From assembly GCF_053078305.1 (NCBI RefSeq), contig NZ_CP166879.1: DNA of 64,000 nucleotides; one strand, given 5' to 3'. Position numbers and translations under genes: made by a program. Below are positions 19,738-22,254 of the stretch, one piece after another (positions within the stretch are counted from its first letter, which is position 1; the number at the start of each line of letters is the position of its first letter). The notes under the pieces are model-generated. The model worked only from the letters and a program-made list of their open reading frames with translations. It did not search any database and was not told the DNA's origin.

Positions 19738-22254
19738 ATGTTACAGATAGTCGGCGCGCTGATCCTGCTGATCGCAGGATTTGCCATTCTTCGCCTTTTG
19801 TTCAGAGCATTAATCAGCACGGCTTCTGCGCTGGCAGGGCTCATATTGCTGTGTCTGTTCGGCCCGGCCTTACTGGCTGGCTATATCACCGAACGCATAA
19901 CCCGGTTGTTCCATATTCGCTGGCTGGCAGGCGTATTTCTGACGATTGCCGGAATGATCATCAGCTTCATGTGGGGACTTGATGGTAAACATATCGCGCT
20001 GGAGGCTCACACCTTTGACTCTGTGAAATTTATTCTGACCACCGCTCTCGCCGGTGGTCTGCTGGCTGTTCCCCTGCAGATCAAAAACATTCAGCAGAAC
20101 GGGATCACACCAGAAGATATCAGCAAGGAAATTAACGGGTATTACTGCTGTTTTTATACTGCCTTTTTCCTTATGGCGTGTTCTGCATGCGCACCATTGA
20201 TCGCGTTACAGTACGATATTTCACCGTCACTGATGTGGTGGGGCGGGTTGTTGTACTGGCTGGCTGCATTAGTGACGCTGCTATGGGCGGCCAGCCAGAT
20301 CCAGGCGCTGAAAAAACTGACCTGTGCCATCAGCCAGACACTGGAAGAACAACCGGTGCTCAACAGTAAATCGTGGCTGACCAGTTTGCAAAACGATTAC
20401 AGCCTTCCTGACTCACTGACGGAGCGCATCTGGCTGACGCTCATTTCACAACGGATTTCCCGGGGAGAGCTGAGGGAATTTGAACTGGCAGACGGAAACT
20501 GGTTACTGAACAATGCCTGGTATGAAAGAAACATGGCAGGGTTTAACGAACAGTTGAAAGAGAACCTGTCATTCACACCTGATGAACTGAAAACGCTCTT
20601 CCGGAACCGCCTGAATTTATCACCGGAAGCGAATGACGATTTTCTCGATCGTTGCCTGGACGGCGGTGACTGGTATCCCTTTTCAGAAGGTCGCCGTTTT
20701 GTATCATTCCATCACGTGGATGAGCTTCGTATCTGTGCCTCCTGCGGGCTGACAGAAGTACATCATGCCCCGGAAAATCATAAGCCGGATCCGGAATGGT
20801 ACTGCTCCTCTCTTTGTCGCGAAACAGAAACACTGTGTCAGGAAATTTATGAACGCCCTTACAACAGCTTTATTTCCGATGCAACGGCGAATGGTCTGAT
20901 TCTCATGAAACTGCCGGAAACCTGGAGTACAAATGAGAAAATGTTTGCTTCCGGAGGGCAGGGACATGGGTTTGCCGCTGAACGGGGAAACCATATTGTC
21001 GACAGAGTCCGTCTGAAAAACGCACGGATCCTCGGTGATAATAATGCCAGAAATGGAGCAGACAGACTGGTCAGCGGAACAGAAATCCAGACGAAATATT
21101 GTTCAACTGCAGCCCGTAGCGTCGGTGCGGCATTCGACGGACAAAACGGACAGTATCGTTACATGGGAAATAATGGCCCCATGCAACTGGAAGTCCCCCG
21201 TGATCAGTATGCCGGCGCTGTTGAAACCATGAGGAATAAGATCCGCGAAGGTAAAGTACCCGGTGTAACCGATCCCGCAGAAGCGTCCCGGCTGATTCGT
21301 CGGGGACATCTGACTTATACTCAGGCCCGTAATATCACCCGGTTCGGGACCATCGAATCGGTCACTTATGATATTGCCGAGGGGTCGGTTGTCAGTCTGG
21401 CGGCCGGAGGGATCAGTTTTGCCCTGACGGCATCGGTCTTCTGGCTCAGCACCGGCGAGCGCGATGCTGCCCTGCAGACAGCTGCTGTCCAGGCAGGAAA
21501 AACCTTCACCCGCACACTGGCTGTCTACGTCACAACCCAGCAACTCCACCGGCTCAGTGTTGTTCAGGGTATGCTGAAGCACATTGATTTTTCGACTGCC
21601 AGCCCGACTGTCCGACTGGCTCTTCAGAAGGGGACCGGTGCAGGAAATATCAGTGCCCTGAACAAAGTGATGAAGGGTACGCTGGTGACATCTCTGGCAC
21701 TGGTAGCTGTCACAACCGGCCCTGACATGATCAAAATGTTGCGGGGACGGATCTCCGGTACGCAGTTCATCAGGAATCTTGCCGTGGCATCTTCCGGTGT
21801 GGCAGGTGGAGCTGTCGGGTCAGTGGCGGGCGGGATACTGTTCAGTCCACTGGGACCATTTGGTGCACTGACAGGGCGTGTGGTTGGCGGTGTTCTGGGG
21901 GGAATGATTGCCTCCGCTGTATCAGGAAAAATTGCCGGAGCGCTGGTTGAAGAAGATCGCGTCAAAATTCTGGCAATGATTCAGGAGCAGGTGACATGGC
22001 TTGCCGGCAGTTTCCTGCTGACCGGACATGAGATTGAAAATCTGAACGAGAATCTGGCCCGTGTTATCGATCAGAATGCTCTGGAGATCATTTTCGCCGC
22101 CGGTATACAACAACGGGCCGCGACCAATATGTTAATCAAACCACTGGTGGTCAGTATCATCAGGCAACGCCCCGTCATGGAATATGATGCATCCCATCTC
22201 GGCAATATGGTTAACCGACTGGAAGAAGCATTACCCCCGGAGTTACCGGCATAA
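19738..22254 (+). CDS. YeeR-like inner membrane protein (long form, about 838 aa)
   Basis: Conserved position after flu; N-terminal hydrophobic helices, central Cys cluster ICASCGLTEVHH...WYCSSLCRE, C-terminal Gly-rich hydrophobic segment. ATG 19738 preferred (GGAG 5 nt upstream) over GTG 19732. Confidence 0.6.
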   Translation: MLQIVGALILLIAGFAILRLLFRALISTASALAGLILLCLFGPALLAGYITERITRLFHIRWLAGVFLTIAGMIISFMWGLDGKHIALEAHTFDSVKFILTTALAGGLLAVPLQIKNIQQNGITPEDISKEINGYYCCFYTAFFLMACSACAPLIALQYDISPSLMWWGGLLYWLAALVTLLWAASQIQALKKLTCAISQTLEEQPVLNSKSWLTSLQNDYSLPDSLTERIWLTLISQRISRGELREFELADGNWLLNNAWYERNMAGFNEQLKENLSFTPDELKTLFRNRLNLSPEANDDFLDRCLDGGDWYPFSEGRRFVSFHHVDELRICASCGLTEVHHAPENHKPDPEWYCSSLCRETETLCQEIYERPYNSFISDATANGLILMKLPETWSTNEKMFASGGQGHGFAAERGNHIVDRVRLKNARILGDNNARNGADRLVSGTEIQTKYCSTAARSVGAAFDGQNGQYRYMGNNGPMQLEVPRDQYAGAVETMRNKIREGKVPGVTDPAEASRLIRRGHLTYTQARNITRFGTIESVTYDIAEGSVVSLAAGGISFALTASVFWLSTGERDAALQTAAVQAGKTFTRTLAVYVTTQQLHRLSVVQGMLKHIDFSTASPTVRLALQKGTGAGNISALNKVMKGTLVTSLALVAVTTGPDMIKMLRGRISGTQFIRNLAVASSGVAGGAVGSVAGGILFSPLGPFGALTGRVVGGVLGGMIASAVSGKIAGALVEEDRVKILAMIQEQVTWLAGSFLLTGHEIENLNENLARVIDQNALEIIFAAGIQQRAATNMLIKPLVVSIIRQRPVMEYDASHLGNMVNRLEEALPPELPA

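Follow-up and report, generated by a model that had tools for sequence, protein, structure and literature searches.

Full-length YeeR is a multidomain membrane protein whose best-conserved segment probably folds, judging from its structural model, as a PD-(D/E)xK (restriction-endonuclease-like) domain, and the protein may be, at best, a distant paralogue of the PADLOC candidate PDC-M09B. We favour the proposal, to which we grant somewhat less than an even chance, that YeeR is a membrane-tethered effector of defence or conflict that targets nucleic acids and is carried as cargo of a genomic island. The gene was identified in a 64,000-nucleotide stretch of DNA (the window). We found nothing in the literature on the function of YeeR, which is called uncharacterised there.

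Identity and integrity of yeeR

An uninterrupted frame of 838 codons is read in the + strand of the window from the ATG at position 19738 to the stop codon at 22252-22254. It is almost certainly an intact yeeR (19738-22254 with the stop codon), since the ORF call is matched by an annotated CDS of 99.9% identity (WP_001315618.1). At a locus of 99.9% identity, NCBI annotated the same 838-residue CDS. The Shine-Dalgarno-like sequence GGAG (19729-19732, + strand) is read directly 5 nt upstream of the ATG, and an in-frame GTG at 19732 provides an alternative start. Loci matching the yeeR region at 99.9% are annotated as "YeeR family protein" or as hypothetical protein. Protein cluster P0001, to which the window protein is 99% identical, groups 15,556 sequences and carries a precomputed PF27347 (YeeR_C) tag. 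The initial annotation as a YeeR-like membrane protein was sound: residues 1-507 are identical to YeeR of E. coli K-12, and the hydropathy profile displays about six hydrophobic amino-terminal helices.

More than 100 relatives of 805 to 882 residues, with identity down to 32%, are found in Gamma- and Betaproteobacteria, all of them with the PF27347 YeeR_C tag. The usual length in the family is 820-850 residues; the window protein was thus wrongly described as unusually long, the exception being the K-12 copy. The earlier caveat that the ORF could be an artefactual fusion of two genes, to be exposed by an internal stop or a frameshift, has practically no chance of being correct, and the same is true of the read-through of a pseudogene: the frame is uninterrupted, the same ORF length recurs in the >100 relatives down to 32% identity, many other genera besides 1797 complete genomes of E. 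coli have the full-length ORF, conservation in the alignment is unbroken along the whole of YeeR, and the AF2 model is continuous. We found no support for an artefactual origin of the long ORF.

Truncation in E. coli K-12

YeeR of K-12 (b2001, in the CP4-44 prophage) has 510 residues. The identity with the window protein extends to residue 507 and is followed by EER and a stop codon. Exact-word mapping of the K-12 junction shows that window position 21258 is joined to 24595, the 3.3-kb deletion fusing yeeR to yeeS. The missing stretch (21259-24594, + strand), defined by this mapping, by the K-12 annotation and by previous descriptions (PMC4807369, PMC6480617), comprises the codons for YeeR residues 508-838, irmA, DUF905, DUF932 and antirestriction genes, and the 5' end of radC/yeeS. 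The K-12 protein is therefore a deletion remnant of the same gene, which is preceded by agn43 in both genomes, and the window carries the form ancestral to it. The remnant ends before completion of the nuclease-like domain and is devoid of the entire glycine-zipper region and of the carboxyl-terminal domain, all of which are kept in the window protein. The truncation of K-12 yeeR had already been described (PMC4807369, PMC6480617), so the observation of a full-length form is correct and not new.

Genomic setting

In the window yeeR lies between agn43 (flu; 16420-19617, + strand, whose annotated start is at about 16498 by comparison with a second locus, L001) and irmA, coding for an IrmA family protein (22330-22785, + strand). 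The first terminator-like stem-loop with a T-run downstream of yeeR is found behind irmA (22810-22838, + strand). The three genes are co-transcribed in strains EC958 and CFT073 and repressed by OxyR (PMC4807369); in the strains studied yeeR transcription originates at the phase-variable agn43 promoter controlled by OxyR and Dam, as published. The order agn43-yeeR-irmA is found in nearly all E. coli carriers. yeeR belongs to the cargo of an integrative island of the CP4-44 type, whose backbone codes for AlpA, a Gp2/YagK-YfjJ protein, a GTPase, DUF932, an antirestriction protein, RadC and CbtA/CbeA.

The position behind flu, presented as conserved in the initial annotation, is indeed so in E. 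coli and is not elsewhere, where YeeR is encoded alone or behind WYL, PDC-M09A and PDC-M09B genes. Neither agn43 nor irmA is found near YeeR relatives of other genera. In Dyella, for example, a solitary yeeR is flanked by cellulose-synthase and TonB-receptor genes; in Pseudomonas one lies among transporter genes. WYL/WCX regulators are encoded upstream in 13 of 80 loci. Matches to defence models account, in raw counts, for a minority of the neighbour genes; one short-form relative adjoins AIPR and restriction-modification genes.

At least 80% of the yeeR region is present in 1797 of the 5426 complete E. coli genomes. Degraded copies are common in the species (K-12, ST131 and 787 of 2584 carrier genomes) and yeeR is often missing from islands that are otherwise intact, as in K-12 and ST131.

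Membrane anchor and tandem winged-helix-like domains

Hydropathy, the AF2 model and conservation delimit a polytopic membrane anchor of 5-6 hydrophobic helices at residues 1-190 (19738-20307, + strand). Hydropathy alone counts about six in this region, and AF2 builds helices 2-57, 61-82, 93-120, 129-159 and 163-204. The transmembrane region is weakly conserved, with 23% mean identity across relatives. A K/R-rich loop (49-61) and the pair K192-K193 behind the last helix suggest that the domains following the anchor are cytoplasmic.

The next segment (about residues 205-325; 20350-20712, + strand) is predicted to form two tandem winged-helix-like domains. AF2 models there two H-H-(H)-E-E units with pLDDT 85-90, whose best Foldseek matches are the winged helices of ESCRT-II, SelB, PyrSV gp04, TubR and MecI (probability at most 1.0, E at least 0.03). 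Pfam gave no match for this region, and Foldseek with the model of full-length YeeR retrieved winged helices and generic transporters only.

A conserved cysteine cluster

The central cysteine cluster (residues 330-370; 20725-20847, + strand) is a putative zinc ribbon. It includes the segment ICASCGLTEVHHAPENHKPDPEWYCSSLCRE (residues 332-362), which the initial annotation had likened to a zinc-binding knuckle, and has the pattern C333-x2-C336-G-x19-WY-C356-S-x2-C360-x2-T-E-x2-C367. The likeness gains weight from the alignment, where this motif is invariant and all five cysteines (C333, C336, C356, C360 and C367) are unchanged in 36 of 36 relatives. Four of them form two pairs of candidate metal ligands, C333/C336 and C356/C360, separated by a spacer of 14-20 residues across relatives. 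The cluster most likely binds zinc. Its two-pair spacing resembles that of FCS, TRASH and MYND zinc ribbons or treble clefs, the second pair lying within [WFY][YF]CS-x2-C; it differs from these fingers by the fifth invariant cysteine (C367) and the invariant T-E behind the motif. No zinc-finger profile matched the segment above its family threshold. The matches below threshold were to zf-MYND (E 0.0072), zf-FCS (E 0.036) and TRASH_ZMYM4 (E 0.11), each reached by 1-4 of 25 members, and to the DUF2116 treble clef and L24e.

The PD-(D/E)xK-like domain

Residues 405-540 (20950-21357, + strand) are the best-conserved part of YeeR, with 65% mean identity across relatives versus 23% for the transmembrane region. 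E415, D422, D442, R443, Q451, K453, Y454 and E485 are invariant. The AF2 model of this domain (pLDDT 88) has the alpha-beta-beta-beta-alpha-beta core of the PD-(D/E)xK superfamily, common to Hjc resolvases, XisH-like proteins, type II restriction enzymes and CdiA-CT toxins. The placement of conserved residues is predicted to be similar as well, with a glutamate on helix 1 (E415), an aspartate at the start of strand 2 (D442, just before the strand) and an x-K in strand 3 (Q451-x-K453). Unlike in these nucleases, the second acidic residue, at the (D/E) position of the (D/E)-x-K motif, is an invariant glutamine, Q451, which makes catalysis uncertain. The domain is also set apart from PD-(D/E)xK families by its context in a polytopic membrane protein, preceded by a zinc ribbon and followed by glycine-zipper helices.

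None of the nuclease families in Pfam, NCBIfam or the PDB sequence profiles recognises the domain, its own profile searched against PDB and Pfam returned noise only, and the whole protein had no match in NCBIfam or among PDB sequences. This domain, the most informative part of YeeR as well as the best conserved, had been overlooked in the initial annotation.

The carboxyl-terminal half and modularity of the family

Alignment, hydropathy and the AF2 model indicate long hydrophobic or amphipathic helices at residues 541-675 (21358-21762, + strand), including a hydrophobic segment (549-570) and an invariant QQL-R motif (601-605). Motif counts define a glycine-zipper segment at residues 676-740 (21763-21957, + strand), where 23% of the residues are glycine and 8 GxxxG and 20 [GAS]xxx[GAS] motifs are found; the carboxyl-terminal glycine-rich hydrophobic segment reported initially is thus real. 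It is poorly modelled by AF2 (pLDDT 33-57). The sole Pfam match of the whole protein, C19orf12, falls on this segment with an E-value of 0.0097, below the cut-off; the collinear matches to PDC-M09B described below also involve it. A PHROGs match to tape-measure proteins over the glycine-rich helices was discounted as low-complexity. The protein ends with a helical domain (residues 741-838; 21958-22251, + strand; AF2 helices within 740-831) that is kept also in short-form relatives.

A search with the domain profile gathered 1024 clusters at 50% identity; the loci with the module correspond to 366 species-level hits. The module is preceded by an amino-terminal extension of 0 to about 700 residues and nearly always followed by a carboxyl-terminal tail of ~300 residues; the glycine-zipper region is present in every architecture. 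The zinc segment is missing from most of this wider family, which retains the nuclease-like module. Some relatives are fusions to Sel1/TPR and others adjoin an overlapping Sel1 gene. In Firmicutes the conserved module is found with Sel1 and WYL partners and without transfer genes. In other collections the YeeR_C module was found in a single phage record and in about five genuine plasmids, one plasmid relative being annotated "glycine zipper family protein"; its near absence from phages and plasmids indicates that it has neither a phage nor a plasmid function.

Relationship to the candidate system PDC-M09

YeeR matches the PDC-M09B models collinearly with E-values of 5e-6 (23 bits) and 2e-6, true members reaching 1e-214 (710 bits). 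Profile-profile comparison (hhalign) aligns YeeR and PDC-M09B with 74% probability and an E-value of 2.7e-5 over 51 columns that include the D...QxK...(E/H)xP core. BLASTP finds no similarity between the two, the link being seen by HMM and profile-profile comparison only. In both, a glycine-zipper tail comes after the core HG..AE / D...Q-x-K-[YF] / [EH]-x-P-x-D; the transmembrane anchor, the two winged helices and the zinc ribbon are extra in YeeR.

The two proteins are also encoded side by side. A cassette coding for WYL, PDC-M09A (E 1e-119), PDC-M09B (E 1e-214) and a YeeR that is 67% identical to the window protein is found in Enterobacter, Serratia and E. coli. It adjoins DndBCDE and a PIN gene, or the gene of a 1210-residue SIR2 protein, in the same type of island. 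PDC-M09A, the cassette partner, is a glycine-zipper membrane protein. PDC-M09A/B pairs adjoin Gabija-like and Abi_2 genes and occur also without YeeR. No homologue of the PDC-M09A, PDC-M09B and WYL proteins of one such locus (L015) was found in the window by tblastn; the upstream gene here is agn43. A remnant of PDC-M09B was also sought 5' of yeeR by comparing the agn43-yeeR and M09B-yeeR spacers, and they have no similarity before the ATG. We found no mention of candidate system PDC-M09 in the literature.

Proposed function

We privilege, as a possible explanation, a role of YeeR in defence or conflict. The amino-terminal helices would anchor YeeR in the inner membrane, its soluble domains facing the cytoplasm, where nucleic acid would be bound by the winged helices and by the zinc ribbon. 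The PD-(D/E)xK domain would cut this nucleic acid or another phosphodiester substrate, and the glycine-zipper helices would make the protein oligomerise within the membrane or insert into it. The effector would be the conserved nuclease-plus-glycine-zipper module. Sensing and anchoring would be provided by variable amino termini or partners, namely the transmembrane, winged-helix and zinc ribbon segments in YeeR and Sel1/TPR proteins elsewhere. The whole would form a system of defence or conflict directed at invading DNA, kin of candidate PDC-M09. An analogous combination of a variable sensor with a conserved PD-(D/E)xK effector is found in Shedu SduA, Cap4, Can2/Card1 and HamA. To our knowledge, these proteins have no sequence kinship with YeeR and no equivalent of its obligatory glycine-zipper/membrane tail. 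Several observations count against a defence role: the domain is very highly conserved, which is unusual among defence nucleases; many solitary YeeR loci lie amid ordinary genes, and yeeR is often degraded in E. coli; and PDC-M09 is itself a candidate system only.

YeeR could instead be an abortive-infection effector that permeabilises the membrane, its glycine-zipper or hydrophobic helices forming a pore or disrupting the inner membrane when triggered and the PD-(D/E)xK-like domain being non-catalytic, with a sensing or oligomerising role. The dense glycine zipper kept in all architectures, the glutamine at the acidic position of the (D/E)xK motif, the similar nature of cassette partner PDC-M09A and the annotation of the plasmid relative agree with this activity. 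We nevertheless consider it unlikely: conservation peaks in the nuclease-like domain, whose eight invariant polar or charged residues look more like a catalytic or ligand-binding site than a scaffold, a distinct membrane anchor is already present at the amino terminus of YeeR, and the model of the glycine zipper is poor.

There is a smaller chance that YeeR serves the mobile island, processing or tethering DNA at the membrane in excision, transfer, entry exclusion or maintenance. DNA-binding-type domains and a membrane anchor combined in one protein would suit such a task, and in Enterobacteriaceae yeeR is always found within islands of the AlpA/Gp2/DUF932/antirestriction type. However, beyond this family yeeR stands alone without the island backbone, the Firmicutes module with Sel1 and WYL has no transfer genes nearby, the module is almost missing from plasmids and phages, and yeeR is frequently lost while the island stays intact.

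A function of YeeR as an accessory factor for export, surface display or regulation of Ag43 or IrmA is very improbable. K-12 has functional Ag43 despite its truncated YeeR, and agn43 and irmA are not near YeeR relatives of other genera. Co-transcription of agn43, yeeR and irmA under OxyR repression (PMC4807369) and their constant order in nearly all E. coli carriers would fit a helper, but IrmA secretion is normal in a host without Ag43 and functional YeeR (PMC4807369) and irmA of strain 042 has its own promoter (PMC9431211). We reject this role, as IrmA is secreted independently of YeeR and the linkage is limited to E. coli.

Finally, it is barely credible that YeeR senses or transports metal at the membrane, with the cysteine cluster as a metal-sensing site of the TRASH/YHS kind: the C-x2-C...[FY]CS-x2-C arrangement, which we take to resemble the FCS/TRASH motif, the weak matches to zf-FCS, TRASH_ZMYM4 and L24e and the presence of arsC next to the cassette in some Enterobacteriaceae speak for it, yet every match is sub-threshold, MYND and other structural zinc fingers score equally weakly, most of the wider family has the nuclease-like module without the zinc segment, and metal-resistance genes are not consistently among the neighbours, so that the proposal was rejected as based on sub-threshold motif resemblance only.

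Biological significance

yeeR is in itself an ordinary gene, annotated in thousands of genomes and with a published truncation in K-12. K-12, the usual strain for the study of "y-genes", has a broken copy, and K-12 screens therefore cannot reveal the role of YeeR. The reading of its domains given here (an anchor, DNA-binding-type domains, a conserved nuclease-fold domain, and kinship and adjacency to PDC-M09) makes this uncharacterised membrane protein testable in a cheap and specific manner. The role in defence that we favour can be extended to a bolder hypothesis, which we hold to be doubtful though worth stating: the YeeR_C module would represent a widespread and uncharacterised class of nuclease effectors, embedded in the membrane, in anti-phage or anti-plasmid immunity. 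Intact YeeR would then be a version made of a single gene product that is anchored in the inner membrane and attacks DNA there as it enters, and in E. coli Dam/OxyR phase variation would turn it on and off in step with Ag43. If YeeR does act in defence, about one third of sequenced E. coli would hold a phase-variably expressed immunity gene in the much-studied agn43 operon, and a function would be gained for a family of more than 1000 protein clusters.

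Locus organization and spread in E. coli

The yeeR gene (19738-22254, + strand) is a single unbroken ORF of 838 codons plus stop that almost certainly codes for an intact YeeR. A GGAG read from the sequence at 19729-19732 (+) lies 5 nt from its ATG, and an in-frame GTG is found six bases upstream of the ATG. The same coding sequence is annotated by NCBI at a 99.9%-identical locus (WP_001315618.1). No terminator-like site was found between agn43 (16420-19617) and the end of irmA (22330-22785); the first one downstream of yeeR is at 22810-22838, after irmA. The three genes are co-transcribed under OxyR repression in EC958 and CFT073 (PMC4807369), and a later paper reports that irmA of strain 042 has its own promoter (PMC9431211). 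YeeR is termed uncharacterised in the literature on agn43-yeeR-irmA (PMC4807369). Two long ORFs antisense to agn43 (17170-17922, 250 aa, and 17980-19044, 354 aa, both - strand) probably reflect the repeats and high G+C content of its coding sequence rather than being genes.

Of 5426 complete E. coli genomes, 2584 carry the yeeR region and 1797 have at least 80% of it, almost always with agn43 on the upstream side and an IrmA-family gene on the downstream side. The placement after flu (agn43) described in the initial annotation thus holds for nearly all E. coli carriers, but the linkage is confined to this species. The element is of the CP4-44 type. Genes for an AlpA regulator, inovirus-Gp2/YagK-YfjJ proteins, a paralogue of Hha and a GTPase come first and are followed by agn43, yeeR and irmA, then by genes for DUF905, DUF932, an antirestriction protein, RadC and DUF987, and last by those for YeeU/CbtA, DUF5983, DUF957 and DUF4942. 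The window begins within the island, which is visible from there to its right junction, in the region of about 27105-29100 that starts with the DUF4942 gene (27105-27953). The closest annotated genome, GPEC1176, has ulaD-ulaC-ulaB-ulaA directly after the DUF4942 gene, so ulaE and ulaF do not adjoin ulaD at that junction. Three tandem tRNA-Gly(GCC) genes (58405-58703, - strand) are ordinary core-genome content.

Family length and decayed copies

A protein search retrieved over 100 relatives, 805-882 aa long and at 32-68% identity, from Enterobacteriaceae, Pseudomonas, Shewanella, Methylomonas, Herbaspirillum, Cupriavidus, Dyella, Stenotrophomonas and others; all those listed carry the Pfam tag YeeR_C (PF27347). 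The protein, first regarded as unusually long, therefore has the normal length of its family, and its recurrence in so many relatives excludes a fusion artefact of two genes.

Comparison with K-12 identifies the window protein as the full-length form. The K-12 YeeR (510 aa) is identical to it over residues 1-507 and then ends with EER-stop. K-12 DNA past the junction maps to window position 24595, inside radC, showing that 21259-24594 was lost from K-12. This 3.3-kb deletion spans the 3' third of yeeR, then irmA, the genes for DUF905, DUF932 and the antirestriction protein, and the beginning of yeeS; the truncation of yeeR was already published (PMC4807369, PMC6480617). ST131 strain 2822 keeps a 1134-nt 3' remnant (positions 1607-2740 of its locus), annotated as a pseudogene without N-terminus, and 787 of the 2584 carriers have less than 80% of the yeeR region. 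The gene decayed independently across several E. coli lineages.

Domain organization of YeeR

The architecture was deduced from 36 aligned relatives together with an AlphaFold2 model of the whole protein (mean pLDDT 77); mean identities are to the window protein. Residues 1-190 (23%) form five to six membrane helices, in agreement with the about six hydrophobic helices that account for the N-terminal transmembrane segments initially annotated. The K/R-rich loop 49-61 and K192-K193 past the last helix suggest that the domains that follow are cytoplasmic; short relatives beginning at the alpha/beta domain lack a signal peptide, which agrees with this location. Residues 205-325 (24%) contain two helix-helix-hairpin units for which Foldseek ranks winged-helix domains first (ESCRT-II, SelB, TubR, MecI; probability up to 1.0, E at least 0.03).

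The cysteine cluster noticed initially (residues 332-362) lies in segment 330-370 (45%), where the motif C-x2-C-G-x(14-20)-[WFY][YFHI]-C-[SA]-x2-C-x2-T-[ED]-x2-C is invariant in 36/36 relatives. It has no match above threshold in Pfam or PDB. Since every weak one is a zinc module (zf-MYND, 0.0072; zf-FCS, 0.036; TRASH_ZMYM4, 0.11; the DUF2116 treble clef; L24e), the motif is likely a structural zinc ribbon. The zinc-binding knuckle suggested initially is thus probably a zinc module, though one assigned to no named family.

Residues 405-540, an alpha/beta domain, are the best conserved part (65%) and are recognised by none of the libraries searched (Pfam, NCBIfam, PDB). Modelled alone from 34 diverse sequences (pLDDT 88, pTM 0.83), the domain begins with a helix and three strands, followed by a helix, a strand and a last helix. 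Foldseek gave no significant match to this model, the first listed being PspGI, Hjc, CdiA-CT, VRR-NUC and I-Ssp6803I. Invariant across the wide family are G411, E415, D422, G433, G440, D442, R443, Q451, K453, Y454, F466, Y475, E485, V486 and P487. In the model E415 is part of the first helix, D442 immediately precedes strand 2, and strand 3 carries Q451-x-K453. This is the E...D...(D/E)xK layout of PD-(D/E)xK enzymes, except that YeeR has Gln for the second acid. The modelled domain quite probably has a restriction-endonuclease-like fold.

Long hydrophobic helices and then a glycine zipper occupy residues 541-740 (52%); the Gly-rich hydrophobic segment of the initial annotation corresponds to residues 676-740, with 23% Gly and eight GxxxG. 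A helical domain ends the protein (741-838, 36%).

The YeeR_C module beyond E. coli

The module is ancient, broadly distributed and joined to many kinds of partner. The domain profile retrieves 1024 clusters (50% identity) at E <=1e-3, 535 of them at E <=1e-30. In the proteins retrieved, N-terminal extensions vary from 0 to about 700 residues, and a glycine-zipper tail of 200-400 residues nearly always follows the domain. Some relatives are fused to Sel1 or TPR repeats, and others are short forms of 450-700 aa. Screening one genome from each species gave 366 loci, spread over Proteobacteria, Firmicutes, Negativicutes, Lentisphaerae, Riflebacteria, Cyanobacteria and Chlamydiae. Their occurrence is patchy and accessory, which suggests horizontal transfer. 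The module occurs in 1 of 50,697 phage records and is rare on plasmids.

Genes around the module were clustered in 80 loci (raw counts). WYL+WCX regulators are found upstream in 13, in 9 the gene immediately downstream, often overlapping, codes for a Sel1/TPR protein of about 650 aa, and several small proteins recur. In Firmicutes, short module genes and the Sel1/TPR gene downstream of them (about 620-660 aa) overlap (loci L008, 244-3836, and L045, 4786-8494), and Sel1-YeeR_C fusions exist in other relatives; proteins P0143, P0150 and P0135 belong to this overlap/fusion set. Overlap in some and fusion in others suggest that the two proteins act together. A 477-aa short form from a metagenome (L011, 8001-14476) adjoins an AIPR gene for abortive infection and a restriction-modification cluster of methyltransferase/PD-(D/E)xK type.

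In Enterobacteriaceae islands a YeeR 67% identical to the window protein follows, in this order, a WYL regulator, PDC-M09A (E 1e-119) and PDC-M09B (E 1e-214). The window protein itself gives weak, collinear matches to the PADLOC PDC-M09B models (E 5e-6 and 2e-6), and profile-profile comparison aligns ADRLVxGxxIQTKY...EVPxDQY with ADYxIDGxxVQSKF...HIPKD (74% probability, E 2.7e-5). BLASTP detects no similarity between them, so the relationship is distant. PDC-M09A/B occur without YeeR in an Aeromonas AlpA/YagK-YfjJ island (L106, 5075-7449) and in a Vibrio parahaemolyticus conjugative element (L110, 1-7437), there directly after a Gabija-like OLD-TOPRIM + UvrD pair and Abi_2. Proteobacterial yeeR genes are mostly solitary, some near toxin-antitoxin, TIR or IS genes and others among ordinary genes; no WYL, M09A or M09B gene was found in the window. 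This makes YeeR and M09A/B units that can occur apart but have ancestry and habitat in common.

Putative function of YeeR

Our best guess, a tentative one, is that YeeR serves a defence or conflict system as an effector that is tethered to the membrane and targets nucleic acid. Its N-terminal helices would anchor it in the inner membrane, nucleic acid would be bound by the winged helices and zinc ribbon and cleaved by the PD-(D/E)xK domain, and the glycine-zipper helices may oligomerise in the membrane or insert there. Against this stand the modest fold scores, the Gln at the catalytic position, the many solitary loci in unremarkable surroundings, the candidate status of PDC-M09 itself and the repeated decay of yeeR in E. 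coli (K-12, ST131, 787/2584 carriers). A pore-forming abortive-infection effector whose nuclease-like domain is non-catalytic is an unlikely alternative, and a role in the maintenance or transfer of the island itself is less probable still. YeeR is very unlikely to be a helper of Ag43 or IrmA, because IrmA secretion is independent of it and the agn43-yeeR-irmA linkage exists only in E. coli. A metal sensor is hardly credible, and an artefactual long ORF has a negligible chance.

That yeeR is an annotated, widespread gene and how it relates to the K-12 copy were already known; what is added here, the domain analysis and the PDC-M09 link, amounts to leads rather than findings. Interest in yeeR, modest as it stands, would grow should the module turn out to represent a novel class of membrane-embedded nuclease effectors in immunity.
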